Assembly (NCBI GenBank): GCA_043739205.1
Contig: JAYUEQ010000051.1
Span: 1 to 36,269 of the forward strand
Source: Thermoleophilia bacterium
GTDB lineage: Bacteria; Actinomycetota; Thermoleophilia; Gaiellales; Gaiellaceae
DNA length: 36,269 nt
Direction: 5' to 3'
This document shows positions 4,964 to 28,458 of the stretch, in pieces. Every line of letters starts with the position of its first letter. Positions within the stretch are counted from its first letter, which is position 1. The translations under genes and the position numbers were made by a program. Under the pieces are notes generated by a model that saw only the letters and a program-made list of their open reading frames with translations, was not told the origin of the DNA and did no database searches.

Positions 4964-5902
4964 ATGGCAAAGGCGCCCGCACTTCCGCGCGGTTTCGAGT
5001 TGCCGCTCAAACAGCGGCTTCCGCGCATCGGCTCGATCGACCAGGTGGGCGTCGAGCAGCGCGCAGCGGATCTCGCCAAGCGCAGCATCAAGAAGGACTC
5101 CAAGGTCTGGGCGCTCGAGCTTGCGCTCCGCTGCTGCGACCTGACAACGCTTGAGGGACAGGACACGCCGGGGAAGGTGGCCGCGCTCTGTTCGAAGGCG
5201 ATCCGGCCGGACCCGAGCGACCCGACTGTTCCGTCCGTGGCCGCGGTTTGCGTCTACCCGAACCTCGTCCCGACTGCGGTGGAGCGCCTCGCCGGCTCCG
5301 GGGTGAAGGTCGCGAGCGTCGCGACCGCATTCCCGTCCGGCCAGAGCCCGCTTGACGTGAAGCTGCGCGACGTCGAGGACGCCGTTGCGATGGGCGCCGA
5401 CGAGATCGACATGGTGATCGACCGCGGTGCGTTCCTCTCCGGTCGCTACTCGAGCGTCTTCGATGAGATCGTGAAGATCAAGGAGGCCTGCGGCGACGCG
5501 CACCTGAAAGTGATCCTCGAGGTGTCCGAGCTCGGCACCTACGACAACGTGCGACGCGCCTCGCTCCTCGCGATGGCAGCGGGCGGCGACTTCATCAAGA
5601 CGTCCACCGGGAAGCTCCCGGGTGCCGCGACGCTCCCCGTGCAGCTCGTGATGCTCGAGGCGATCCGCGATGTCTATGAGGAGACCGGCCGCAAGGTCGG
5701 CATGAAGCCCGCCGGCGGCATCCGCACTTCGAAGAATGCGATCCAGTACCTCGTGCAGGTGCACGAGACGCTCGGCCCCGACTGGTTGACACCCGACCTC
5801 TACCGGATCGGCGCGTCGAGTCTCGTCAACGACATCCTCATGCAGTTGCGTACGCAGAAGACCGGCCGTTACCAGTCGAAGGACTACTTCACGAATGACT
5901 GA
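4964..5902 (+). CDS. deoC: Deoxyribose-phosphate aldolase (long actinobacterial type)
   Basis: ATG at 4964 (MAKAPALPRG). Motifs CCDLTTLEG, VAAVCVYP, TAFPSGQ, GADEIDMVI, DFIKTSTGK (Schiff-base Lys region) and KPAGGIR. The ORF-track start at 4082 overlaps the permease gene and is rejected. Confidence 0.88.
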   Translation: MAKAPALPRGFELPLKQRLPRIGSIDQVGVEQRAADLAKRSIKKDSKVWALELALRCCDLTTLEGQDTPGKVAALCSKAIRPDPSDPTVPSVAAVCVYPNLVPTAVERLAGSGVKVASVATAFPSGQSPLDVKLRDVEDAVAMGADEIDMVIDRGAFLSGRYSSVFDEIVKIKEACGDAHLKVILEVSELGTYDNVRRASLLAMAAGGDFIKTSTGKLPGAATLPVQLVMLEAIRDVYEETGRKVGMKPAGGIRTSKNAIQYLVQVHETLGPDWLTPDLYRIGASSLVNDILMQLRTQKTGRYQSKDYFTND

Positions 5903-7361
5903 CGTAGAAAAACGCCAGGACCGTTCGCCTGTTCCGACGGACTGGACGTACGCGCCCGCGCCCGAGAGCACGGACATCGTGAAGCTGCAGGACCGCTACG
6001 AGCTCTTCATCGGCGGCAAGTGGGTCGAGGCGAAGGAGCACTTCACCACGCTCTCGCCGCGCGACGAGTCACCGCTCGCCGAGGTTGCGCAGGCGAGCGA
6101 GGCTGACGTGCACAAGGCAGTCGCCGCTGCGCGCGAAGCCTTCCCTGCCTGGTCGAAGCTGCCCGGCTCGGAGCGCTCGAAGTACTTGTTCCGGATCGCA
6201 CGCATCCTCGCCGAGCGCGCCCGCGAGTTCGCGGTGCTCGAGAGCTTGAACGGAGGCAAACCGATCAAGGAATCGCGCGACGTCGACCTGCCGCTCGCAT
6301 CGGCGCACTTCTTCTACTACGCGGGCTGGGCCGACAAGCTCGAGTATGCGTTTCCGAACCGCAAGCCGAAGCCGATCGGGGTCGCCGGGCAGATCATCCC
6401 GTGGAACTTTCCGCTCCTGATGCTGTCGTGGAAGATCGCACCCGCGCTTGCGGCAGGCAACACCGTCGTGTTGAAACCCGCCGAGACGACCCCGCTCACG
6501 GCATTGCTCTTCGCCGATGTGCTCCGCCAGGCCGAGTTGCCGCCGGGCGTCGTCAACATCGTCACCGGCGACGGCCGAACCGGCGCGGCGCTCGTTGACA
6601 GTGACGTCGACAAGATCGCGTTCACCGGCTCGACCGAAGTCGGCAAGGCGATCCAGCGTCACGTCGCGGGCACCGGCAAGAAGCTGACGCTGGAGCTCGG
6701 CGGCAAGGCCGCGAACATCCTCTTCGACGACGCGGCGCTCGACCAGGCGGTCGAGGGGATCATCAACGGCATCTACTTCAACCAGGGTCACGTCTGCTGC
6801 GCCGGCTCGCGCCTGCTCGTGCAGGAGTCGATCTATGAACCCGCGATCGAGAAGCTGAAGAAGCGGATGGCGACGTTGCGTGTCGGCGACCCGCTCGACA
6901 AGAACACCGACGTGGGCGCGATCAACTCGCGCGAGCAACTCGACCGAATCACAGCGCTCGTCGAGGCCGGCAAGGAAGAGGGTGCGGAGATCTACCAGCC
7001 CCCGTGCACGCTGCCGGAGAAGGGCTACTGGTTCGCGCCGACAGTCTTCACGAACGTCGCGCAGAGCTACCGCATCGCGCAAGAGGAGATCTTCGGCCCA
7101 GTGCTGAGCGTGCTCACGTTCCGCACACCTGAGGAAGCCGTCGAGAAGGCGAACAACACGCCGTACGGCCTGTCCGCCGGCGTCTGGACGGAGAAGGGCT
7201 CGCGCATCCTCTGGATGGCGCAGCAGTTGCGCGCCGGCGTCGTGTGGGCGAACACCTTCAACCGCTTCGATCCGACGAGCCCGTTCGGCGGGTACAAGGA
7301 ATCCGGCTTCGGTCGCGAGGGTGGACTGCACGGCCTCGAGCCGTACATGGACTTCGAATGA
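5895..7361 (+). CDS. NAD(P)-dependent aldehyde dehydrogenase
   Basis: 488 aa with the catalytic motifs ELGGKA and FNQGHVCCAGSRLLV, plus GSTEVG. Start overlaps the end of deoC. Confidence 0.9.
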   Translation: MTDVEKRQDRSPVPTDWTYAPAPESTDIVKLQDRYELFIGGKWVEAKEHFTTLSPRDESPLAEVAQASEADVHKAVAAAREAFPAWSKLPGSERSKYLFRIARILAERAREFAVLESLNGGKPIKESRDVDLPLASAHFFYYAGWADKLEYAFPNRKPKPIGVAGQIIPWNFPLLMLSWKIAPALAAGNTVVLKPAETTPLTALLFADVLRQAELPPGVVNIVTGDGRTGAALVDSDVDKIAFTGSTEVGKAIQRHVAGTGKKLTLELGGKAANILFDDAALDQAVEGIINGIYFNQGHVCCAGSRLLVQESIYEPAIEKLKKRMATLRVGDPLDKNTDVGAINSREQLDRITALVEAGKEEGAEIYQPPCTLPEKGYWFAPTVFTNVAQSYRIAQEEIFGPVLSVLTFRTPEEAVEKANNTPYGLSAGVWTEKGSRILWMAQQLRAGVVWANTFNRFDPTSPFGGYKESGFGREGGLHGLEPYMDFE

Positions 7362-8155
7362 GCCGGCTTCCCGTCAACAAGACCTACAAGCTGTTCATCG
7401 GCGGCGCGTTCCCGCGCAGCGAGAGCGGACGCACCTATGAAGCGCAGGGTGCGAATGTCGCGCGCGCGTCGCGCAAGGACGTCCGTGACGCGGTGCAGGC
7501 AGCGCGCGGCGCGCAGCCGAAGTGGGGCAGCGCAACCGCGTACAACCGCGGCCAGGTGCTCTACCGCATCGCCGAGATGATGGAAGCGCGCCTGCCCGAA
7601 TTCGCCGCACTGTGCACCGGCAAGGCCGAGGTGGAAAAGGCGATCGACCGTTGGGTTTGGTACGCCGGCTTCGCCGACAAGCTCGCGCAGGTGCTCGGCT
7701 CGTCGAACCCGGTCGCCGGTCCGTACTTCAACTTCACGATCCCGGAGCCGACGGGCGTCGTCGGGATCGTCGCGCCGCAGGAGCCGCCGCTCCTCGGGTT
7801 GGTCTCGCGCCTCGCGCCGGCGCTCACCGGTGGGAACGCTGTCGTCGCGCTCGCCTCCGAGACCGAGCCGCTCGCCGCGATCGAGCTCGCCGAGGTGATC
7901 GCAACGAGCGACGTCCCCGGCGGCGTCGTCAACCTGCTCACCGGCCAGCAGGCGGAGCTTGCGCCATGGCTCGCCTCGCACATGGACGTGAACGCGATCG
8001 ACATCACCGGTGCGAACGGATTGAGGGCCGACCTGGAGGTCGCCGCGGCAGATAACGTCAAGCGGGTCGTGGTCGCCGAGCCCGACGCACAATCGCTCTA
8101 CGAGATCTCGGCGTTCCTCGAACTGAAGACCGTCTGGCACCCGATCGGCCAATGA
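7358..8155 (+). CDS. Short aldehyde-dehydrogenase-like protein lacking the catalytic domain
   Basis: ATG at 7358 overlaps the ALDH stop (ATGA). It aligns by eye to the ALDH N-terminal cofactor-binding half (KTYKLFIGGAFPRSESG, PTGVVGIVAPQEPPL, GGVVNLLTG, VNAIDITGANG) and then jumps to a C-terminal tail (LELKTVW). No ELGGK or catalytic Cys motif is present. Confidence 0.7.
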   Translation: MSRLPVNKTYKLFIGGAFPRSESGRTYEAQGANVARASRKDVRDAVQAARGAQPKWGSATAYNRGQVLYRIAEMMEARLPEFAALCTGKAEVEKAIDRWVWYAGFADKLAQVLGSSNPVAGPYFNFTIPEPTGVVGIVAPQEPPLLGLVSRLAPALTGGNAVVALASETEPLAAIELAEVIATSDVPGGVVNLLTGQQAELAPWLASHMDVNAIDITGANGLRADLEVAAADNVKRVVVAEPDAQSLYEISAFLELKTVWHPIGQ

Positions 8156-20077: not shown

Positions 20078-20335
20078 TCAGGCGTCGCGCGCAGCGACGA
20101 ACTCGGCCTCGACAGCGTCGAGGACGTCGTTCGGTGCTCCGTCGCGCGGGTCGAGCTCGCGCCACGCGAACTGCTCGAGATACGCGTCGCTGCCGACGAG
20201 GCCCTGCTCCATCGCCACCCGGTCGATCTCCTGCTGGAACCAGTCCGGGAGCTGGCGTGATTGCTGCGTTCCGTCGTCGAGTGTGACGCGGATCAGCGAC
20301 GGGATCTCCTGCCAGTAGAGAACGCGGACCTGCAT
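20078..20335 (-). CDS. Small conserved-looking protein of unknown function (85 aa), translationally coupled to the FDH Fe-S subunit
   Basis: ATG at 20335-20333 overlaps the stop of the upstream gene (ATGA). Sequence MQVRVLYWQEIPSLIRVTLDDG... The ORF-track start at 20524 lies inside the Fe-S subunit gene. Confidence 0.55.
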   Translation of the reverse strand: MQVRVLYWQEIPSLIRVTLDDGTQQSRQLPDWFQQEIDRVAMEQGLVGSDAYLEQFAWRELDPRDGAPNDVLDAVEAEFVAARDA

Positions 20336-21195
20336 CAGCGGCGGTTCTGCACGTACTGGTAGCCGAACCTGCCCTTGATGCAGAGGTTGCCCTCCGTCAC
20401 GTCGTGATCGTGCGGGGAGGTGACGTTCACGATCTCGTTGTCCTGCACATGGAGTTCGAGGTTGCAGCCGACACCGCAGTACGGGCACACCGTCGACACG
20501 ACCGTCTCGTTCTCCGCATCCCACGTGCCGGCCTGACGTTTCTCATACTCCGCCACCGACATCAGCGCGCCGGTCGGGCACACCGCAATGCAGTTGCCGC
20601 AGTACACGCACGCGGACTCGGGCAGCGCCACGTCGAGCTCCGTCGAGATGTGCGCGTCGAACCCGCGGCCGGCGACGGCGATCGCGAACGTGTTCTGATG
20701 ATCTTCACCGCACGCCGAGACGCACTTGTAACAGAGGATGCACTTCGAGTAATCGCGCACGTAGAGGTCGTTGTCGATCTTCACGTCCTGCGCGACCGTC
20801 GCCGCATCCGGGCCGAACCGATCGGGCTTGGCGTCGTACTCCTCGATGTAGGCAAGGGCTTCCGGTGCGGTCGAGAGGTCGACCGACGAGCCAAGGAGCT
20901 CGAGCACGAGGCGGCGTGAGGTGCGCACGCGTTCCGAGTCCGTGTGCACGACCATGCCCGGCTCCGCGATCCGCGAGCACGACGGGACAAGGGTGCGTGC
21001 ACCCTCGACCTCCACGACGCATACACGACAGACGTTCACCGGCGTGAGCGTGTCGCCGTAACAGAGTGTCGGCTGCTCGTTGCCGAGCATGCGGCACGCG
21101 TCGAGGATCGTCGAGCCTTCGAAGACCCGAACTGGCTGGCCGTCGACCGACAGCTCGATCATCTTCTTCGGCGCGGCGAGAACGACGCTGCTCAT
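20335..21195 (-). CDS. Formate dehydrogenase iron-sulfur subunit (NuoG-N-terminal-like)
   Basis: 286 aa. Carries a 2Fe-2S motif, two 4Fe-4S ferredoxin motifs and the 4Fe-4S domain normally at the N-terminus of the Mo subunit. 2Fe-2S region: CRMLGNEQPTLCY..VCRVCVVEV. Ferredoxin motifs: CILCYKCVSAC and CVYCGNCIAVCP. Mo-bisPGD-type cluster: CPYCGVGCNLEL...CIKGRFG. The ORF stops right after this cluster. Confidence 0.85.
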   Translation of the reverse strand: MSSVVLAAPKKMIELSVDGQPVRVFEGSTILDACRMLGNEQPTLCYGDTLTPVNVCRVCVVEVEGARTLVPSCSRIAEPGMVVHTDSERVRTSRRLVLELLGSSVDLSTAPEALAYIEEYDAKPDRFGPDAATVAQDVKIDNDLYVRDYSKCILCYKCVSACGEDHQNTFAIAVAGRGFDAHISTELDVALPESACVYCGNCIAVCPTGALMSVAEYEKRQAGTWDAENETVVSTVCPYCGVGCNLELHVQDNEIVNVTSPHDHDVTEGNLCIKGRFGYQYVQNRR

Positions 21196-22853
21196 GCGGC
21201 GAACACCTTCAAGTTCGCGATCGCCGACATGACCGCGCTCGCTGCCGTCTGGCCGAGACCGCAGATCGACGCGTCGCGCATCACTTGCGCGAGCTCCGCG
21301 AGTGTTTCAAGCTCGTTCTCGTGGGCGCGCCCTTCAGCGAGGCGGTGCAGCGCTTCCTCCTGCCGCACGGTGCCGACTCGACACGGGACGCACTGTCCAC
21401 ACGATTCGTCGCGGAAGAACTCTGCAATCCGGAGCAGCGCGGCCACCAGGTCGGCGCTCTCGTCGTAGACGATCACGACGCCGGAACCGAGCGTCACGCC
21501 CGCAGCGCGGGTGTCCTCGTAGGTGAGGCGCAGGTCGAGCAGGTCCGGGCCGACGAATGCGCCCGCCGCGCCGCCGAGGAGCACGGCCTTCGGCGGCTCG
21601 GCGCCCGCCAGGTCGAGCAGCTCGCGCAGCGTCGAACCAAAGGGAAGCTCGTAGAGACCCGGCTGCGCGACCGCGCCGGAAACGCAGAAGAGCCGTGTGC
21701 CCGTCGAGTCTTTCGTCCCCGTCTCGGCGTATGCCTCGCCGCCGTCGGCCACGATGTCGAGCACGTTGAAGAGCGTCTCGACGTTGTTTTCTGCGGTCGG
21801 CTTTCCGAACAGGCCGACCTCGACCGGGAACGGCGGCTTGTTGCGCGGCTCGCCGCGGAAGCCTTCGATCGACTGGAAGAGCGCCGTCTCCTCGCCGCAG
21901 ACGTAGGCGCCCGCGCCGATGCGCAGCTCGATGTCGAACCCGACGAGGAACTCGCGCGACCGTGCGAGATCGATCGCGTTCCGCAGCCGCCGGTGTGCGA
22001 GCGGGTACTCCGCGCGCACGTAGATGAAACCGTGGCTGCTGCCGGTCGCGAGCGCGGCGATCGCCATCGACTCGATCAGCGCGAACGGATCCTGCTCCAT
22101 CAGCACGCGGTCCTTGAACGTCCCAGGCTCGGATTCGTCGCCGTTGCAGACAAGGTAGTGCGGCTGGGCGGGCTGCTTTGCGACCGCGGCCCACTTGACG
22201 CCGGTCGGAAACGCCGCGCCGCCGCGGCCGAGCAGGTTCGACTCGGTGACCTCTTTCACGATCGCCTCCGGCCCGAGCTCGCGCGCGCGGCGCAGCGATT
22301 CGAAGCCGCCGGCCTGGATGTAGGCGTCGATCGATTCGGGATCGACACCCGCGGCGATGCGCCGCAGCAGGCGCAGGCCCGGCTGCCCCGCCTGCGGGAG
22401 CGGCGGGCCGGCGGCGGGGATCTGCTCCTCGACCGGATGCTCCCCGGCGATCGTGCGGTAGGCGGCAGGGGCGCGTTCGCAGAGGCCAAGGCACGGGGAC
22501 GGGAGGGCGCCCTCGGGCACGGTCGCGCCCTTCAACGCGCACGACAGGTCGGTGCAGACGTGCGTCACGTCCGCGGGCCGTTCGTCGAGTGCGATCAGTG
22601 CGTAGAAGCTCGCGACGCCGTAGGCCTCGGCGGGCGGCACTGCGAGCCGGCGCGAGGCGTAGCCGAGCGCGCCTTCGCTGACCCAGCCGACGCGCCGCTG
22701 GGCGGCGCGGAGTGCGGGCAGCAGCAGGTGACGCTTCGTGCGGTCGTCGCGCGTCGTGCGGCCGTTCGGGTTCGTTCCCGCGCCCAGCACCGCGTCGATC
22801 GCTGTCCGCTCGGCCTCGCTCGGCTCGGCATTCAGGAGCCGGAGGTCAGGCAA
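21192..22853 (-). CDS. NAD(H)-binding diaphorase subunit, fused NuoE-like plus NuoF-like (FdsG/FdsB type)
   Basis: 553 aa. N-terminal thioredoxin-like 2Fe-2S part (VCTDLSCALKG, CLGLCERAP), then NuoF motifs (GRGGAAFPTGVKW, NGDESEPGTFKDR, ESCGQCVPCRVG, ICGLG). Overlaps both neighbouring genes. Confidence 0.88.
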   Translation of the reverse strand: MPDLRLLNAEPSEAERTAIDAVLGAGTNPNGRTTRDDRTKRHLLLPALRAAQRRVGWVSEGALGYASRRLAVPPAEAYGVASFYALIALDERPADVTHVCTDLSCALKGATVPEGALPSPCLGLCERAPAAYRTIAGEHPVEEQIPAAGPPLPQAGQPGLRLLRRIAAGVDPESIDAYIQAGGFESLRRARELGPEAIVKEVTESNLLGRGGAAFPTGVKWAAVAKQPAQPHYLVCNGDESEPGTFKDRVLMEQDPFALIESMAIAALATGSSHGFIYVRAEYPLAHRRLRNAIDLARSREFLVGFDIELRIGAGAYVCGEETALFQSIEGFRGEPRNKPPFPVEVGLFGKPTAENNVETLFNVLDIVADGGEAYAETGTKDSTGTRLFCVSGAVAQPGLYELPFGSTLRELLDLAGAEPPKAVLLGGAAGAFVGPDLLDLRLTYEDTRAAGVTLGSGVVIVYDESADLVAALLRIAEFFRDESCGQCVPCRVGTVRQEEALHRLAEGRAHENELETLAELAQVMRDASICGLGQTAASAVMSAIANLKVFAA

Positions 22854-24735
22854 TAGCTTCCACCCGGATCGCCGTCGCCTTGAACTCGGCGGTGCCGCTC
22901 TTCGGGTCGGTCGCGTCGATCGTCAACACGTTCGTCTCGACGAGGTCGGGGAAGTGCAGGTTCATGAACGCGAGACCGGGGCGGAGGTTCTTGTCGAATG
23001 CGACCGGAGCCTCGACTGCACCGCGGCGCGAAGTGACGAGCGCCCGCCCGCCGTCGCGCAGTCCGTAGCGCGCGCCGTCTTCCGGCGAGACGAGCAGCGC
23101 CTCGCCTCCGGCGTGGAGCGGTGAGGAGAACCCGCCGGTCTGCACGCCGGTGTTGAACGACTCGAGGCGACGGCCGGTGGTGAGGCGTAGCGGGAAGTTG
23201 GCGTCGAGCACATCGACGGGCGGCGAGTGCTTGACGGGATGGAATGCCGCCGGCCGTTCGACGACGTCGTCCCAGAGCCGGCCGTGCAGGAACTGGTCGC
23301 CGGGATGCGTCTCGTCCCAGCACGGCCACTGAATCCCGCCGAGCTCCTCGAGCCGGGTGTAGGACATGCCCGCGTGCATGGGGGAGAGCGTACGCAGCTC
23401 GTTCCAGATGTCCTCCGGGCGCGGGCTGCCGAGGTCGACGCCGAGGCGGCTGCCGAGCTCGTAGACGATCTCGATGTCGTCGCGGGCCTCGCCGGGAAGG
23501 TCGAGCGCCTTGCGCACGCGCTGCACCCGCCGCTCGCTCGAGGTGACGGTGCCCTCGGCCTCGGCCCACGACGCCGAAGCAGGGAAGACGACGTCTGCCA
23601 GCTCCGCCGTCTTCGTGCGGAAGATGTCCTGCACGACGAGGCTGTCGAGGCTCTCGAGCAGTCGGCGCGCGCGGGTCTGGTCGGCTTCCGACTGCGCGGG
23701 GTTCTCGCCGATCACGTACAGCGCGCTCAGCTCACCCCGCTCGATCGCCTCGAACATCTCCGTGAGGTGCAGTCCGCTCTTCGGTGGGACTGTCACGCCC
23801 CAGGCTGCGTCGAACTTTGCGCGTGCAAGGTCGTCCTCCACCTCCTGGAAGCCCGGCAGATGCTTCGGGATCGCGCCCATGTCGCCGCCGCCCTGCACGT
23901 TGTTCTGGCCGCGCAGCGGCTGGAGCCCGGCGCCGTGGCGGCCGACGCCGCCGACGAGCAGTGAGAGGTTGATCAGCGCGAAGACGTTGTCGACGGCGTT
24001 GTGGTGCTCGGTGATCCCGAGCGTCCAGCACATCTGCGGGTACTTCGAATTGCCCCAGGCGTGTGCGAGTTCCCGGATCGCCTCGGCCGGCACGCCGGTC
24101 ACCCGCTCGGCTTCCTCGAGCGTCCACGGCTCGACCGACTCGCGATACGCGTCGTAGCCGGTCGTCGCGCGCGCGACGAACTCCTCGTTCACGAGCCCAG
24201 CCGTGATCACTTCGCGTGCAACGGCATTCGCGAGCGGGATATCGGTCCCGACGTCGAGCCCGAGCCACAGGTCGGCCCACTGCGCCGACGCGGTGCGGCG
24301 CGGGTCGACGACGAAGAGCTTCGCCCCGCGGTGCACGGCCTTCAGGACGTGGTGGAAGAAGATCGGGTGCGCGTCGCGCGCGTTCGAGCCCCAGAGGATG
24401 ATCAGGTCCGCAGACTCGCGCAGCTCTTCGTAGGAGCTGGTCCCACCGCCGGCACCAAACACCGTCGCCAGACCGACGACGCTAGGGGCGTGTCAGGTGC
24501 GGTTACAGCTGTCGATGTTGTTGGTGCGGAGAGCGACCCGGCCGAACTTCTGGGCAGCGAAGTTCAACTCGTTCGTGGCCTTGGAGCAACTGAAGATCCC
24601 AGCCTGTTTTCCCTGCTGTGCAGTGCGGCGGAAGCCGGCGGCGGCTCTGTCGAGTGCCTCGTCCCAGGTGGCGGTCCTCAGCTCTCCGGCGTCACGAACG
24701 AGCGGCTGGGTCAGCCGCGTGTACCTCGGAGGCAT
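22846..24735 (-). CDS. Formate dehydrogenase catalytic (Mo/W-bisPGD) subunit, selenocysteine-containing, lacking its own N-terminal Fe-S domain
   Basis: ORFs 24493..24735 and 22846..24462 are in the same frame, separated only by TGA (24493-24495) and 10 sense codons. The joined sequence reads NNIDSCNRT-U-HAPSVVGLATVFGAGGG, matching the FdhF Sec-site context. Downstream blocks are typical of FdhF (LRGQNNVQGGGDMG, VQDIF, TAEFKATAIRVE). ATG at 24735 is preceded by AGGA. Confidence 0.85.
24463..24481 (-). promoter_or_regulatory. Bacterial SECIS-like hairpin
   Basis: On the mRNA strand, 11 nt after the UGA, lies CGUCGUC-GGUCU-GGCGACG. This forms a 7-bp stem (one G-U pair) with a GGUCU apical loop. 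The GGUCUG occupies the same codon offset (+7/+8) as in the E. coli fdhF SECIS as I recall it. Confidence 0.7.
24493..24495 (-). other. In-frame UGA read as selenocysteine (codon 81 of the FDH catalytic subunit)
   Basis: The TGA sits exactly where E. coli FdhF has Sec (context C-x-R-x-U-H-x-PSV). The reading frame stays open and homologous on both sides. Confidence 0.8.
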
Positions 24736-24793
24736 GCGCCGATCCTAGACCGAAACGGTGGCGCGCTCGTTCCGCATTGTGGAACGCCCAAGA

Positions 24794-24853
24794 AGTGTCT
24801 GACACCCGTTCGGACTGCGGATTCAGGCCGGACTGCGAAAGGTGTCAGACACC
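24794..24853. repeat. Palindromic repeat locus 3: two copies 47 bp apart
   Basis: AGTGTCTGACACC at 24794-24806 and GGTGTCAGACACC at 24841-24853. The spacer contains a direct repeat of GGACTGCG. The second copy lies inside the last 31 nt of the glpD reading frame. Confidence 0.9.
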
Positions 24854-26244
24854 GTTCCGCCCTCGAGCCACACCGTTGTGCGCCGGCGGTAGACGTCTTC
24901 GTCGGTGCGCGCCCACTCGTGCTCGCGCGCGTAGAGCTCTTGCGCCCGAAGGTCGGGCCGGCCGGGAATGATCGGTTCGAGCAGTGCAGGGTCGTCGACG
25001 GCCGGCGCGAGCACCTCAGGCGCAAGAGAGCCGTAGAGGTGCAAGAGGTGCGTGCGTGTCGCGGGGTCGAGCTCGACGGGCCAGTCGATCTTGTTCAGCC
25101 CGGCTGCGCCCGGCAGCGGACGTGGCTTGCGGTCGAGGTTGCGCACGCCCAGATGCTCGAGCGCGTCGAGTGCGATGCGGCGATAGGTCGTCAGCTTGCC
25201 ACCGGCGACGCTCAACATTCCGTGCGCGCCGTGCGTGTAGACGGTCTCGCGGCGCGCGTTCGCGGTCGCGCCCGGACCGCCGGGCAGCACACGCAGCCCG
25301 TAGAACGATGCACGCACCTCGCCGATGTCGCGCACGGCGACGGCGGCCTCGTCGAGGATCGTCCGCGCGTCGTCGTCGGTCACGCGCGCGTCCTCGGGCT
25401 CGCCCTCGTGCAACGTGTCGGTCGTGCCGAGCAGGAGCTTGCCCTCCCACGGGATCGCAAAGCTCACGCGCACCTTGTCGTGCGGGATCGTCACCGCGGC
25501 GTTCCAACCCTCGCCACCGTCGGCGATCAGATGCACGCCCTTGCTGAGCCGGATCGACGCGGCGGCGCCGGGATCCTCGAGCCGGCGCACGCGGTCGAGC
25601 CAGGGGCCGGTCGCGTTGACGATCGCTCCCGCTTGCACCCGTACGGTCTCGCCGTCGACGAGAACGTCGGCACCGTCGCCGTGGATCGCCGTCACCTCCG
25701 CGTAGTTGAGGACGGTGGCGCCGCGGTCGGCGGCGGCGCGCACGTTCGCGAGCGTCAGCCGGCCGTCGTTCGTCCACGCGTCGGCATAGAGCGCCGAGGA
25801 GTGCAGTCCCTCAGTGCGGAGTTGCGGCACGAGCCTCAGGGCGCGCGTCTCGCTCACCCGCCCGTTCAGCTTCGCCCGCGCGAGTGCGGAGTACAGGAGC
25901 ACCCCGGTGCGCACGAACCAGGGGCGATGCGGCCCGTTGTCGTAGAGCGGGAACACGAACGGCAGCCGGTGGACGAGGTGCGGCGCGACGACCGACATCA
26001 GCGCGCGCCGCTCCTGGTGCGCCTCGCGCACGAGGCGGATGTCACCCATCTGCAAATAGCGCAGGCCGCCGTGGATGAGCTTCGACGATGCAGACGAGGT
26101 CGCCGAGGCAAAATCACCACGCTCGACCAGCGCGACCTTCATTCCGTGAGCGCTCGCCGCTTCCGCGATTCCGGCGCCGATGATCCCGCCGCCGATCACG
26201 AGCAGGTCGAACCGGGTGCCGGCGAGAGCTTCTACGCGATCCAT
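24823..26244 (-). CDS. glpD: FAD-dependent glycerol-3-phosphate dehydrogenase
   Basis: ATG at 26244 (MDRVEALAGTRFDLLVIGGGIIGAGIA). Motifs SSKLIHGGLRYL and GGKLTTYR. The ORF-track start at 27042 runs through the upstream PHP gene in another frame and is rejected. Confidence 0.88.
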   Translation of the reverse strand: MDRVEALAGTRFDLLVIGGGIIGAGIAEAASAHGMKVALVERGDFASATSSASSKLIHGGLRYLQMGDIRLVREAHQERRALMSVVAPHLVHRLPFVFPLYDNGPHRPWFVRTGVLLYSALARAKLNGRVSETRALRLVPQLRTEGLHSSALYADAWTNDGRLTLANVRAAADRGATVLNYAEVTAIHGDGADVLVDGETVRVQAGAIVNATGPWLDRVRRLEDPGAAASIRLSKGVHLIADGGEGWNAAVTIPHDKVRVSFAIPWEGKLLLGTTDTLHEGEPEDARVTDDDARTILDEAAVAVRDIGEVRASFYGLRVLPGGPGATANARRETVYTHGAHGMLSVAGGKLTTYRRIALDALEHLGVRNLDRKPRPLPGAAGLNKIDWPVELDPATRTHLLHLYGSLAPEVLAPAVDDPALLEPIIPGRPDLRAQELYAREHEWARTDEDVYRRRTTVWLEGGTVSDTFRSPA

Positions 26245-27173
26245 AGCGGGTTGCTCCAGGCCCTGTTTCCGTCGCGGTCGAGCACCTCGACGCGTCCGTA
26301 GGGCGCCTCGTAGGGGCGAAGGAGCCGCGCCGCGGTGATCAGGCCGTCGTCGTTGCGCTCGATGATCTCCGAATGGTTCGGGTAGCCGAGCCGGCCGGCG
26401 TTCGCCCGCGCGCCGCGCCAGCGCCCCGAATAGAGCGTCACCGCTTCGGCCGGGCTGCACCGAACGACGACATCGCCGTCGCTCACCTCGATGTCGCGGA
26501 TCTCCGGGCCGGTCGAGCCGTAGAACATCCCGCTGCGCAGCGCGTCGAGCACCGCCTCCTGCGTCTTCTCCTTGACCCGCACCCACGTCGAGGCAAAGCC
26601 GCTGTCGTAGCCGGGATGGTGCGAGTCGTCGGTCGCGAGCGCGAAGAACGGCCGCCCGTGCTCGAGCACCTCGTCCCAGTGGATCGAGGAATCGCCGCGG
26701 CCGAGCTCGAGCTCGCAGCCCGAGTTCCAGACCTCGATCCCATAGAGGCCGGGGCAGTCCCACCACTGCTCCGTCCGGAGGCCGCTCCAGTAGGTGTGAG
26801 CGAGGTACGGGACGCCGCCGTTCTCGGCGATCCAGGCGACGACCTCCTCGAGGGGCGCGAAGTTGCCCTCCGGCACGACGGGATCGACTGCAAGGCCCAA
26901 AGCGAGCACGTGAGCGTCGTGCTCCTGGGTCGGGGCATAGGCGTTCAGCTCGGTCGAGGGGATCACGAGCAGCTTCTTCGTCGAGGGCTCGACCGTCCGC
27001 ACCCAGTGATCCGTGATCGCGAGGACGTCGTAGCCCGCCCACTCGTAGTGCCGCACGAGCAGCTCCGGAGCCAGCTCGCCGTCGGAATTCGTAGTGTGCG
27101 CATGGAGGGCGCAGCGAAGCCAGCTGCCGTCTGTCTGGAACGGGTTCACGGAGAGAGCGTAACGACCCAACAT
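26232..27173 (-). CDS. PHP-domain metallophosphoesterase (CehA/McbA-like)
   Basis: ATG at 27173 (MLGRYALSV). Motifs HAHTTNSDG, AITDHW and DDSHHPG. Its 3' end overlaps the glpD start by 13 nt. Confidence 0.7.
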   Translation of the reverse strand: MLGRYALSVNPFQTDGSWLRCALHAHTTNSDGELAPELLVRHYEWAGYDVLAITDHWVRTVEPSTKKLLVIPSTELNAYAPTQEHDAHVLALGLAVDPVVPEGNFAPLEEVVAWIAENGGVPYLAHTYWSGLRTEQWWDCPGLYGIEVWNSGCELELGRGDSSIHWDEVLEHGRPFFALATDDSHHPGYDSGFASTWVRVKEKTQEAVLDALRSGMFYGSTGPEIRDIEVSDGDVVVRCSPAEAVTLYSGRWRGARANAGRLGYPNHSEIIERNDDGLITAARLLRPYEAPYGRVEVLDRDGNRAWSNPLWIA

Positions 27174-27270
27174 CGTTACCACCCGTTGCCAGAAAGTTAG
27201 GGCGCGGATAGCTTGAAATGAGAGAGCGTTACGTGATCCACTAGAGGACACCACGGACCGGGAGGAATGC

Positions 27271-28458
27271 ATGGAGGACTACGAGGCCCAAGAGGTCGAA
27301 TTCTGGGCAAAGCTCGAAGAAGAGGGCATCAGCCGCTCGTCGATGCTGCGCCGCAGCGCGGCGGCAGCGTTCGGCTTGACCGTGTTCAGCAGCGCGGGAA
27401 CGGCGCTTGGCGCGACGCGTTCGCGGTTTGCGGCACCGCCGGTGAAAGAGACGGCTGCCGGCATGGCCGAGCTGATCAAGAACGCGAAGAAGGAAGGCCA
27501 CCTCAACACGATCGCGCTGCCGCCTGACTGGGCGAACTACGGCGAGATGATGTCGACCTTCTCGAAGAAGTACGGCATCCCGATCACGAACGACAATCCG
27601 GATGGCAGCTCGGCGCAGGAGAACGAGGCGATTCGCTCGCTCAAGGGCGACTCACGGGCCCCTGATGTCGTCGACGTCAGCCTTGCCTTCGCGATCCCGG
27701 GCGCCAACGAGGGCCTGTATGCGAAGTACTTCAACACCAACTACAAGACGATCCCCCGTGCCCTCAAGGACACGCGCGGCTACTGGATGGGCGACTACTG
27801 GGGTGCGGTGTCGATCGGCTACAACAAGTCGCTCGTCAGCAATCCGCCCAAGACGTGGAAGGACCTGACGAAGCCCGAATACAAGGGCAAGGTCGCGATG
27901 AACGGGTCGCCCCTCTCGTCGGGCTCCGCAATCGCGGGTGTCTTCGCAGCGACGCTCGGCGCCGGCGGGTCGTTGTCGGATGTCGGCCCGGGAATCGACT
28001 TCTTCGCCGCACTGAAGAAGTCGGGCAACTTCATCCCGGTGCAGACCACGCCGCAGACCGTTGCGTCGGGCCAGACACCCATTTCGATCGACTGGGACTA
28101 CAACAACCTTGCGTACGTCAAGGAGTTCCCGGCCGCGAACTGGGGCGTCTCGATCCCGGCCGACGGTGTCTACGCGGGCTACTACGCCCAGGCCATCAAT
28201 GCAACCGCTCCGCACCCGTGGGCGGCTCGTCTCTGGGAGGAGTTCTGCTACTCCGACCAGGGTCAGCTGATCTGGCTGAAGGGCTTCTCGCATCCGGCTC
28301 GGTTCAATGATCTGGCGCAACGCAAGGCGCTTCCGAAGAACCTGCTGGCAGCTCTGCCCTCACCGGCGCTCTACGCGAAGGTGAAGTTCGCGAGCCTGTC
28401 GCAGTTGACCAACGCGAAGGCGAAGATCGCCGCCGAGTGGCCGTCGAAGGTCGGGTAG
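27271..28458 (+). CDS. ABC transporter periplasmic substrate-binding protein (PotD/Fe3+-type family), Tat-type signal
   Basis: GGGAGGA lies 6 nt upstream of the ATG at 27271. Twin-arginine region SSMLRRSAAAAFGLTVF is preceded by an unusual acidic 24-residue extension. An alternative start is ATG 27343. Confidence 0.8.
   Translation: MEDYEAQEVEFWAKLEEEGISRSSMLRRSAAAAFGLTVFSSAGTALGATRSRFAAPPVKETAAGMAELIKNAKKEGHLNTIALPPDWANYGEMMSTFSKKYGIPITNDNPDGSSAQENEAIRSLKGDSRAPDVVDVSLAFAIPGANEGLYAKYFNTNYKTIPRALKDTRGYWMGDYWGAVSIGYNKSLVSNPPKTWKDLTKPEYKGKVAMNGSPLSSGSAIAGVFAATLGAGGSLSDVGPGIDFFAALKKSGNFIPVQTTPQTVASGQTPISIDWDYNNLAYVKEFPAANWGVSIPADGVYAGYYAQAINATAPHPWAARLWEEFCYSDQGQLIWLKGFSHPARFNDLAQRKALPKNLLAALPSPALYAKVKFASLSQLTNAKAKIAAEWPSKVG

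Follow-up and report, generated by a model that had tools for sequence, protein, structure and literature searches.

A predicted selenocysteine formate dehydrogenase with a divided alpha subunit in a soil Gaiellales-type actinobacterium

The DNA considered here is a window of 36,269 nucleotides (the whole stretch that was analysed) from a Thermoleophilia bacterium, and the region of interest lies on its minus strand at 24735..20078. Four genes in this region very probably form an operon that encodes a selenocysteine (Sec) formate dehydrogenase (FDH) of a soil Gaiellales-type actinobacterium; the enzyme would be metal-dependent, cytoplasmic and probably linked to NAD+. Its catalytic gene has been cut in two at an in-frame TGA that, judging from the sequence comparisons below, almost certainly encodes Sec. 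The cutting of a Sec gene at its UGA by annotation is a common and well-known artefact, and the selenoprotein reading itself is ordinary; the modestly novel variant is the architecture of the alpha subunit, which is split and permuted. The features of the region, with their evidence in brackets, are as follows.

24742..24747, minus strand: -10-like hexamer (TAGGAT) that precedes the ATG by 6 nt (comparison of relatives)
22846..24735, minus strand: catalytic (Mo/W-bis-pterin) part of the FDH alpha subunit (translation, Pfam, TIGR01591, FdsA/FdhF alignment)
24493..24495, minus strand: UGA predicted to be read as selenocysteine (residue 81), with the catalytic His next (alignment to FDHs, conservation)
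24464..24480, minus strand: SECIS-like hairpin with a 6-bp stem GUCGUC/GGCGAC and the loop GGUCU (frozen four-fold sites, pairing in relatives)
21192..22853, minus strand: NuoE-NuoF fusion, the diaphorase, with [2Fe-2S], FMN, NAD(H) site and [4Fe-4S] (Pfam, 7e5z_B alignment)
20335..21195, minus strand: Fe-S part of the alpha subunit, 286 aa (Pfam, FdsA alignment, TIGR01591, synteny)
20078..20335, minus strand: PF13769 protein, 85 aa (Pfam, E = 1.6e-12)

On the minus strand a single frame runs from the ATG at 24735 to the stop at 22848-22846, with the TGA at 24495-24493 as its sole interruption, and the joined product has 629 sense codons with the in-frame TGA counted in. The original prediction, that the 80-aa and 538-aa ORFs share one frame and are divided by the TGA plus 10 codons, agrees with the translation, and the peptide that it quoted, NNIDSCNRT-*-HAPSVVGLATVFGAGGGTSSYEEL, is exact. 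The 538-aa ORF as called starts at GTG 24462, ten codons 3' of the TGA, and this start does cost the enzyme its active site, as had been pointed out. The two ORFs are one gene, the catalytic part of an FdhF/FdsA-type formate dehydrogenase. In the joined product, a single Pfam Molybdopterin domain (residues 7-429, E = 3.7e-65) bridges the TGA and is followed by a Molydop_binding domain (residues 516-621, E = 3.7e-23). The product matches model positions 52-672 of the 672 of TIGR01591 (Fdh-alpha) with E = 6e-181, and aligns with residues 307-933 of R. capsulatus FdsA and 61-689 of E. coli FdhF, while NF041513/TIGR01553, models of a different subfamily, reach only 164-178 bits. In the 36-kb window, this TGA is the only one with coding-like GC3 and 60 stop-free codons on each side; because of these unique flanks and the one Molybdopterin domain that spans it, its position inside a gene is more than chance. 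The genetic code is standard, since TGA serves as the ordinary stop of 18 of the 29 genes in the window, more often than any other stop codon.

The alignment that had been proposed as a check places the TGA on the Sec/Cys metal-ligand column of the FDHs. In the HMMER alignment its column holds the Cys of T. kivui FdhF (7qv7_S) and the X (Sec) of the F420-dependent FDH 9t1s_L, with the 1aa6 family also among the matches of the joined product, and it corresponds to U140 in the actual sequence of E. coli FdhF (CCARV-U140-HGPSVAGL). The catalytic His that follows and the conserved Arg of RGQNNVQG are both kept. Among the relatives that can be read at this codon, the TGA is kept in 159 of 159 and replaced by Cys in none; the set is made of 80 species-level sequences from a genome scan (the window included; mostly Gaiellales) and 79 metagenome contigs, and the protein identity across it is 62-93%. 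Substitutions follow the order position 3 > position 1 > position 2 on both flanks of the TGA, with 78-79% amino-acid identity on each side. The ten codons that the annotation leaves untranslated (82-91) are 97.6% identical at the amino-acid level, and within this stretch only the third positions of codons 83-84 vary freely. The 120 closest database proteins listed have 82-96% identity to the joined product and lengths of 496-547 aa (537-539 aa in 118 of them), and must therefore all be cut at the same place. Together with two loci that carry gene calls, every call shows the gene in fragments of 80 aa and about 538 aa, with the active site lost. The reading of a Sec FDH gene divided by ORF calling passed every test that was run.

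We turn to the RNA just 3' of the TGA. Eleven nt past the UGA is the sequence CGUCGUC-GGUCU-GGCGACG, and the minimum free energy fold includes this hairpin. The 7-bp stem originally proposed is present in that fold, but its outermost C-G pair is not conserved, and the conserved stem has 6 bp. This conserved element begins 15 nt and ends 31 nt past the U of the UGA, inside the coding sequence, and the constrained stretch around it reaches about 24454-24483. Comparison with the real E. coli sequence bears out that GGUCUG lies at the same offsets as in the fdhF apical loop, +21..+26 from the U of the UGA in both. Over the 223 conserved four-fold codon columns, the entropy is zero in just five, codons 86-90, all of them in the hairpin and one of them a GGT Gly codon, while neighbouring four-fold sites vary freely. 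Of all runs of six columns in the gene, 86-91 has the lowest entropy (0.10 bit; the mean is 0.96 bit). Every one of the 127 distinct sequences can form the 6-bp stem, and 121 of them have GGUCU as the loop; the pairing persists through UG/CG/UA, UA/UG and GC/GU changes. In the same 127 sequences no compensatory two-sided change is found in the stem, so that its support comes from invariance and from changes on one side of a pair; what looked like C14-G32 / U14-A32 covariation disappeared in the larger data set, where the pair is often mismatched. The region's folding energy is unremarkable (z = -0.21), and the hairpin is therefore argued from its conservation and not from thermodynamics. Rfam at its gathering thresholds gives nothing in the whole window; in an E-value scan of 4227 families only SECIS_3 (14.5 bits, gathering 63) and SECIS_2 (13 bits, gathering 70) match the hairpin region, in the right register and far below threshold. 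The pattern of frozen sites indicates strong constraint on the hairpin at the level of the RNA, over and above that imposed by the protein.

The start of the gene carries a signal of its own. All 69 of the 69 relatives compared have the pattern TANNNT 6-8 nt before the start codon (68 of them at 6-7 nt), and no other offset from -30 to -6 shows it; the position of the TAGGAT hexamer therefore fixes the start codon at 24735. This hexamer is a candidate promoter of a leaderless mRNA. The AGGA before the ATG was rejected as a ribosome-binding site because it belongs to the conserved hexamer, and two upstream palindromes were rejected as an operator because they are not conserved.

The catalytic polypeptide has neither a Tat signal nor any Fe-S domain, and the absence of the N-terminal Fe-S domains from the joined protein was missed in the original prediction. 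The gene that follows overlaps its stop by 8 nt and encodes the NuoE-NuoF fusion, with the Pfam domains 2Fe-2S_thioredx, Complex1_51K, SLBB and NADH_4Fe-4S. Its residues 40-545 align with the beta subunit of the M. extorquens W-FDH (7e5z_B), and the protein stops just past the NADH_4Fe-4S domain; the additional ferredoxin domains that bifurcating HydB carries are absent. The start of the third gene overlaps the NuoEF stop (ATGA). Its 286-aa product holds a NuoG-like [2Fe-2S] cluster site, two [4Fe-4S] sites and a Molybdop_Fe4S4 cap with the conserved Lys (LCIKG); the Pfam domains are Fer2_4, Fer4_7 and Molybdop_Fe4S4 (231-284), and the C-terminus falls exactly at the domain boundary. This protein aligns with residues 25-304 of R. 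capsulatus FdsA, and its residues 235-284 are positions 1-50 of TIGR01591. The alpha subunit is divided, between the Fe-S protein and the Mo protein respectively, at TIGR01591 1-50 / 52-672 and FdsA 25-304 / 307-933. The gene order Mo / NuoEF / Fe-S is found in every relative with enough flank to read. Such a reversed order of the alpha halves would result from a tandem duplication and subsequent terminal deletions. The fourth gene is translationally coupled to the Fe-S gene (TGATG) and lies directly after it in 40 relatives. Its 85-aa PF13769 product is strongly conserved and may possibly be a small accessory subunit; no PDB relative of it was found, and its single-sequence structure model is poor (pLDDT 63.7). 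The window ORFs that were scanned give no family match to FdsD or to an FdhD/FdsC-type maturation gene.

According to the mechanism that we propose, the first gene (24735..22846) would yield the Mo/W-bis-pterin catalytic polypeptide, with UGA as its codon 81. SelB carrying Sec-tRNA(Sec) would bind the hairpin 15-31 nt past the UGA, and the ribosome would insert selenocysteine there and continue to the full 629-aa protein, in which Sec would bind the metal, flanked by the catalytic His and with the conserved Arg close by. By contrast, ORF calling halted at the UGA and resumed at the GTG ten codons on, giving the 80-aa and 538-aa pieces with the active site deleted. The N-terminal third of alpha ([2Fe-2S], two [4Fe-4S] and the [4Fe-4S] cap) is encoded as the separate 286-aa protein, third in the operon, and would assemble with the catalytic polypeptide. 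Electrons from formate at the Sec-Mo/W centre would pass to the cap [4Fe-4S] on the other polypeptide, to the NuoG-like clusters, and then through the NuoF [4Fe-4S] and FMN to NAD+. The acceptor, the assembly of the split subunit and the metal, Mo or W, are here what we infer by analogy with related enzymes.

It is useful to compare this enzyme with known systems. With E. coli FdhF it shares the TIGR01591 family, a predicted Sec metal ligand followed by His, and an in-frame UGA with a hairpin inside the gene. E. coli FdhF differs in having its own N-terminal Fe4S4 cap and no NuoG/NuoEF partners, and in feeding a hydrogenase; the stem sequence of the fdhF SECIS is also different, and its bulged-U geometry has no evident counterpart in the window. 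Domains on separate polypeptides are known in the Mo/W-pterin family from formylmethanofuran dehydrogenase (Fwd), where the C-terminal pterin-binding domain is the separate piece. Compared with FwdB/FwdD, the separate piece in the window is the N-terminal Fe-S portion with the cap, and the FwdB model TIGR03129 matches the Mo protein weakly. M. extorquens FDH1 (FdhAB) and the FdsABG(D) enzymes of R. capsulatus and C. necator have the same combination of a NuoG-like Fe-S N-terminus, a Mo/W-pterin part and NuoE/NuoF, and the NuoE-NuoF fusion resembles the beta subunit of Methylorubrum extorquens FDH1 end to end. Those enzymes have a Cys ligand and a one-piece alpha subunit, and Cys is likewise found in the NAD-linked FDHs characterised from aerobes (PMC13397495). 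In contrast, the alpha subunit in the window has a predicted Sec, is divided where the Fe4S4 cap would meet the Mo domain, and is encoded in the order C-part / NuoEF / N-part, with no FdsD found in the window and the PF13769 protein present instead. Another actinobacterial selenoprotein FDH annotated as two ORFs is the mycobacterial enzyme (the 'fdhA-fdoG' pair), which pipelines split at the UGA and which has its SECIS immediately 3' of the UGA (PMC13449736). That enzyme, unlike the present one, is respiratory, of the FDH-O/N type and about 1064 aa long, and thus of another subfamily, and sel genes are documented in the same genomes. The literature search on a split FdsA found nothing relevant.

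The next question is where the Sec-decoding machinery is encoded. As originally stated, no sel genes are visible in the window, which holds no selA, selB, selD or tRNA gene, and in 80 Gaiellales-type genomes none of selA, selB, selC and selD lies within 10 kb of the operon. When E. coli SelA, SelB and SelD were compared by tblastn with the flanks of 82 loci (L001-L082) and the window, L081 was the sole match. In L081 and 16 metagenome loci, the orthologous split operon is immediately preceded by selB, selA, a tRNA-Sec gene (Rfam 65 bits) and selD. The relatives of the L081 SelA are all from Chloroflexota, and these 17 loci belong to a sister branch, Chloroflexota-like. A search of a representative library gives one Actinomycetota SelA (P0288), the relatives of which form selA-selB(-selD) clusters in the soil MAGs WNGR01, WNGP01, DATDKU01 and DASYSE01; a tblastx comparison of the Actinomycetota selA-selB soil MAGs with carriers of the FDH operon found no informative shared genes. 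Long ARAGORN calls of 'tRNA-Thr/Ala/Arg' near some FDH loci were considered as tRNA-Sec-like genes and rejected for their poor structures. The earlier remark that Sec use is uncommon in high-GC Gram-positives is contradicted by a mycobacterial survey, in which about 40% of 244 genomes have the Sec machinery and a Sec-FDH with the same annotation split (PMC13449736). For Sec in Gaiella/Thermoleophilia, the literature search found nothing relevant.

Could the TGA be a genuine stop, with an 80-aa peptide and a separate 538-aa protein made from GTG 24462 and no selenocysteine? ORF callers in all public sources annotate it so, the alpha subunit here tolerates a split elsewhere, and sel genes are not found in the window. 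The codons between TGA and GTG would then be untranslated, yet they are 97.6% identical in amino acids; both fragments would be without the metal ligand and the catalytic His, and no conserved Shine-Dalgarno or promoter signal precedes the GTG, the stretch being the 3' arm of the frozen hairpin. We consider such a stop highly improbable. A pseudogene that arose when a Cys codon (TGC/TGT) became TGA in this genome would need only one transition or transversion, and FDH pseudogenes are known in some actinobacteria (PMC13449736). The comparative data effectively refute it: the TGA stands in 159 of 159 relatives at 62-93% identity with a Cys codon nowhere, both halves are under purifying selection, and the operon partners are intact and translationally coupled.

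The UGA might also be read through without Sec, by near-cognate Cys or Trp, or with Cys from a mis-charged tRNA-Sec at low selenium, leaving a sulphur ligand or none. The failure to find sel genes within 10 kb of the operon in Gaiellales carriers and the use of Cys by the NAD-linked FDHs characterised from aerobes (PMC13397495) speak for this. Inefficient near-cognate decoding, however, leaves a conserved hairpin in the E. coli SECIS register unexplained, a lineage for which Cys was good enough should now and then have fixed TGC/TGT, which is never seen, and the sister branch keeps a full sel set beside the operon; we regard read-through of this kind as quite improbable. It is unlikely, too, that the complex is something other than a simple NAD+-dependent FDH, whether a different oxidoreductase of the Mo/W-pterin kind or a complex that bifurcates electrons or reduces CO2. 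In the PDB, NuoEF matches best with HydB/NfnB/HoxF-type subunits of bifurcating or hydrogenase complexes, and the Mo part scores 602.9 bits, just below the TIGR01591 equivalog cut-off of 666.25 bits. That deficit is explained by the 50 model positions (1-50, 55.6 bits) that sit on the separate 286-aa protein. Moreover, the Sec-His pair and the RGQNNVQG Arg are FDH signatures, NuoEF lacks the extra HydB ferredoxin domains and matches the beta subunit of M. extorquens FDH1 from end to end, and the operon has no hydrogenase or ferredoxin partner gene.

Taken alone, the Sec, UGA and SECIS part extends the most widespread selenoprotein family of bacteria to a new lineage, the Gaiellales-type soil actinobacteria, and it matters mainly for annotation, the active site being lost in the gene calls. 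The operon is also a clean case of a conserved SECIS plus an apparently leaderless start. We hold it to be an even call whether the whole is an undescribed FDH architecture: obligately selenium-dependent and NAD-linked, with an alpha fission exactly at the Fe4S4-cap/Mo boundary, the halves reversed around the diaphorase gene, an apparently leaderless mRNA, and the arrangement fixed in Gaiellales and a Chloroflexota-like branch, lineages that abound in aerobic soils. In that case the cap through which electrons enter a Mo/W-pterin enzyme would be seen to act as a detachable module. The natural split of alpha at a domain boundary offers a ready test of electron-entry modularity in CO2/formate catalysts, which bears on FDH engineering. 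Because every member seen keeps the Sec codon and the lineage includes aerobes, a selenium requirement is predicted for formate use by abundant soil bacteria; were the architecture as proposed, some of the commonest uncultured actinobacteria of soil would need a supply of selenium to oxidise formate.

On the minus strand, one reading frame runs from an ATG at 24735 to a stop codon at 22848-22846, and a TGA at 24495-24493 is its sole interruption. The original prediction read this frame as a single selenocysteine (Sec) formate dehydrogenase (FDH) gene cut in two by ORF calling, and that reading is supported by the position of the TGA at the Sec/Cys column, its presence in 159 of 159 loci, the coding character of both flanks and the conservation of the adjoining hairpin. 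The 538-aa ORF reported by the ORF finder starts at a GTG (24462), ten codons 3' of the TGA. In the joined translation the active-site peptide around the UGA is T-U-HAPSVVGLATVFGAGGGTSSYEELR; this peptide and the hairpin, as quoted originally, match the window sequence exactly. Residues 7-429 of the joined product form a single Pfam Molybdopterin domain (E = 3.7e-65), which straddles the TGA and is followed by a Molydop_binding domain. A window-wide scan finds that this TGA is the only one with coding-like base composition and 60 stop-free codons on each side. The genetic code is standard, since TGA otherwise serves as the most frequent ordinary stop, ending 18 of the 29 genes in the window.

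Which residue would the UGA encode? Compared with solved structures using HMMER, it aligns with the Cys of T. kivui FdhF (CARL-C-HAPTVAGLA) and with the X (Sec) of the F420-dependent FDH, so that it lands on the Cys/Sec column of solved FDHs, and the PLRGQNNVQG motif with its conserved arginine is found in the joined product. The original comparison with E. coli FdhF proves correct against the real fdhF gene sequence (CCARV-U140-HGPSVAGL); GGUCUG occupies the same offsets, +21..+26 counted from the U of UGA, in E. coli fdhF and in the window gene.

The relatives share this arrangement. Among the matches listed, the 120 closest database proteins (82-96% identity) are 496-547 aa long, 118 of them 537-539 aa, and all 120 have the same truncation point. 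A genome scan with one genome per species gives 80 loci (69-93% identity), almost without exception from Gaiellaceae, Gaiellales or Thermoleophilia MAGs, and TGA is present in all 80 sequences covering the site, the window counted. Another 79 loci, from metagenomes scanned with the most distant branch as seed, likewise all have TGA; a Cys codon occurs in none of the pooled 159. Pairwise differences at codon positions 1/2/3 are 0.18/0.13/0.31 5' of the TGA and 0.15/0.12/0.34 3' of it, with amino-acid identity among relatives of 78% and 79% respectively, and the ten codons left untranslated by the ORF caller are 97.6% identical at the protein level. These comparative data on the TGA and on substitutions bear on two other readings. 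A pseudogene is excluded by the invariant TGA, the missing Cys codon, the codon-position pattern and the conservation of the ten codons. That the TGA is a true stop followed by re-initiation is very unlikely, because the TGA is kept throughout, the coding pattern is found on both of its flanks and the ten codons are nearly identical among the relatives.

We turn to the SECIS-like hairpin, which lies inside the coding sequence just 3' of the TGA. Over 223 conserved four-fold-degenerate codon columns in 77 distinct genes, the mean third-position entropy is 0.96 bit. Only five columns have zero entropy, and these are the consecutive codons 86-90 (GUC GUC GGU CUG GCG); the minimum six-column window of the whole gene is 86-91, at 0.10 bit, while the four-fold sites directly flanking the frozen codons vary freely. 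In the 127 distinct sequences of both scans, the six pairs +15..+20 / +26..+31 are always paired, and the loop is GGUCU in 121, GGGCU in 4 and GGACU in 2. Of the 7-bp stem originally proposed, the inner six pairs thus stand and the outer C-G pair, which is not conserved, does not; the lower helix of the MFE fold is not conserved either. Three stem pairs change, on one side only (UG/CG/UA, UA/UG and GC/GU), and no pair among the 127 sequences shows the changes on both sides that would constitute covariation. The folding energy of the region is unremarkable (z = -0.21), and SECIS_3 and SECIS_2, the only Rfam matches to it, are in the right register and far below threshold. Because the frozen sites and the pairing are seen and double-sided changes are not, the case for the putative element lies in its register and in strong purifying selection at the RNA level, not in covariation.

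The joined product is without any N-terminal Fe-S domain, and the usual N-terminal third of the alpha subunit is carried by a separate gene of the same operon.

Features of the window and, in the last line, of the related locus L081
24747..24742, minus strand, TAGGAT (TANNNT), the window's own upstream hexamer
24735..22846, minus strand, Mo part (catalytic Mo/W-pterin part) of the FDH, operon gene 1
22853..21192, minus strand, NuoE-NuoF fusion, operon gene 2
21195..20335, minus strand, Fe-S protein of 286 aa with Fer2_4, two [4Fe-4S] motifs and a Molybdop_Fe4S4 cap, operon gene 3
20335..20078, minus strand, PF13769 protein of 85 aa, operon gene 4
L081, 2351-7672, selB, selA, tRNA-Sec and divergent selD

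Consecutive operon genes overlap by 8, 4 and 1 nt, and both scans show the order Mo / NuoEF / Fe-S wherever a locus has enough flank. NCBIfam model TIGR01591 splits cleanly between two proteins, with positions 1-50 on the C-terminus of the Fe-S protein and 52-672 on the Mo protein; R. capsulatus FdsA is likewise covered at 25-304 by the Fe-S piece and at 307-933 by the Mo piece. The C-terminal end of the Fe-S protein is a domain boundary, and its cap keeps the Cys motif and the LCIKG lysine. The NuoE-NuoF fusion matches the tungsten-FDH beta subunit from M. extorquens end to end and, unlike bifurcating HydB-type subunits, has no extra ferredoxin domains. Most likely the enzyme is an NAD+-linked formate dehydrogenase of the cytoplasm whose alpha subunit has undergone fission; we infer NAD+ as the acceptor, the metal and the assembly from homology.

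The PF13769 ('Virulence_fact') gene has a start that overlaps the Fe-S gene stop (TGATG), and it directly follows the Fe-S gene in 40 relatives. Its product is strongly conserved (LYWQ.IPS...RQLPDWFQQEIDR.AMEQGL.GSDAYLEQW.W), has no solved relative and gives a poor AF2 single-sequence model; a role as a small accessory subunit is possible. Sister-branch loci often have 2-8 kb of additional genes between the Mo and NuoEF genes (L081, 12468-13136; L109, L112, L122, L150, L181), breaking the tight coupling typical of Gaiellales operons; the L081 insert holds a Phd/YefM-like antitoxin.

Among the loci L001-L082, 69 relatives have an ATG or GTG start that aligns; upstream of the operon, every one of them has a TANNNT hexamer 6-8 nt before the start codon (6-7 nt in 68) and at no other offset from -30 to -6. 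This suggests an actinobacterial -10 pattern spaced for a leaderless mRNA, and a promoter of its own for the FDH transcript, including in loci where the glpD-like gene upstream touches or overlaps the FDH start. The position of the hexamer supports ATG 24735 as the true N-terminus, and hence the alpha-subunit split as real.

Two palindromes, GTGTC-N-GACAC (minus strand, 24842-24852 and 24795-24805), lie inside an imperfect direct repeat of ~19 nt, one at the end of the glpD-like gene and one in the spacer that precedes the FDH gene; absent in the 75 relatives checked, they are strain-specific. The glpD-like ORF (24823-27042, minus strand, 739 aa) has DAO domains starting only at residue 279, and its first ~270 codons are overlapped by an ORF at 26232-27272 (minus strand) that has better codon statistics, no Pfam match and a conserved, separate counterpart in L001; the glpD-like gene itself probably starts near 26240. 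Further upstream is a ugp-like glycerophosphodiester uptake cluster. Elsewhere, a 303-aa ORF (7244-8155, plus strand) matches no more than the first half of an aldehyde dehydrogenase profile (20-234 of 461), and a full-length aldehyde dehydrogenase gene (5895-7361, plus strand) ends inside it; a truncated paralogue, a frameshift or an ORF-calling error may explain it.

Where is the decoding machinery? The window lacks tRNA genes, and none of its plausible ORFs has a SelA, SelB or SelD domain, in agreement with the original prediction. Within 10 kb on either side, the 80 genome loci are also free of Sec machinery genes, with the exception of L081, a MAG labelled Chloroflexi that has an FDH of 71% identity. 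There, selB, selA, tRNA-Sec (65 bits in Rfam RF01852, gathering score 47) and selD stand directly upstream of the same operon. Among metagenome relatives of the L081 branch, 16 loci have sel genes next to the FDH gene and 8 have tRNA-Sec there, and sel genes are present in 10 of the 31 loci having >3 kb of upstream sequence. Loci of this Chloroflexota-like sister branch in which selB, selA, tRNA-Sec and divergent selD stand immediately upstream of the split operon are L081, L121, L122, L127, L129, L139, L150, L158 and L175; the sole selenoprotein gene seen on them is thus packaged with its own decoding machinery, an arrangement reported for horizontally transferred Sec traits (PMC5029168).

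Actinobacterial selA-selB(-selD) clusters are abundant in soil MAGs and metagenomes, and a long search found no tie between them and the FDH-carrying Gaiellales genomes. A conserved neighbourhood of lactamase_B-like gene / selA / selB / clpS / DUF2017, with selD ~2 kb upstream in some, recurs in Actinomycetota soil MAGs and metagenome contigs (L086-L103) and is very abundant in soil metagenomes, in clusters of up to 139 sequences. ARAGORN calls of 90-97-nt 'tRNA-Thr/Ala/Arg' near FDH loci (L041 5300-5389, L047 14788-14881, L074 705-801) were rejected as tRNA-Sec-like, since the stems in their drawn structures are mismatched and the long arms unpaired; they have the look of spurious calls in GC-rich DNA.

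No bacterial selenoprotein is more widespread than the FDH alpha subunit, and the Sec trait is present in Actinobacteria (PMC5029168). The earlier remark that Sec is uncommon in high-GC Gram-positives does not hold, as ~40% of 244 mycobacterial genomes have Sec machinery and Sec-FDH, annotated as 'fdhA' + 'fdoG' and cut at the UGA (PMC13449736). From these surveys, both the phenomenon and the annotation artefact are well known. We found no literature joining Gaiella or Thermoleophilia to selenocysteine, and the Gaiella occulta genome paper lists FDH and leaves selenium unmentioned (PMC6741124); nor did we find literature on a split FdsA. According to a 2026 review (PMC13397495), characterised cytoplasmic NAD+-dependent FDHs are Cys-Mo/W enzymes with a one-piece alpha subunit, whereas the window enzyme has a predicted Sec and a split alpha subunit. 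Considered as a predicted selenoprotein, the enzyme adds one more ordinary member to a known kind; the modest novelty of the system comes from its split and permuted alpha subunit, which is fixed along with Sec in ~150 lineages of abundant soil bacteria.
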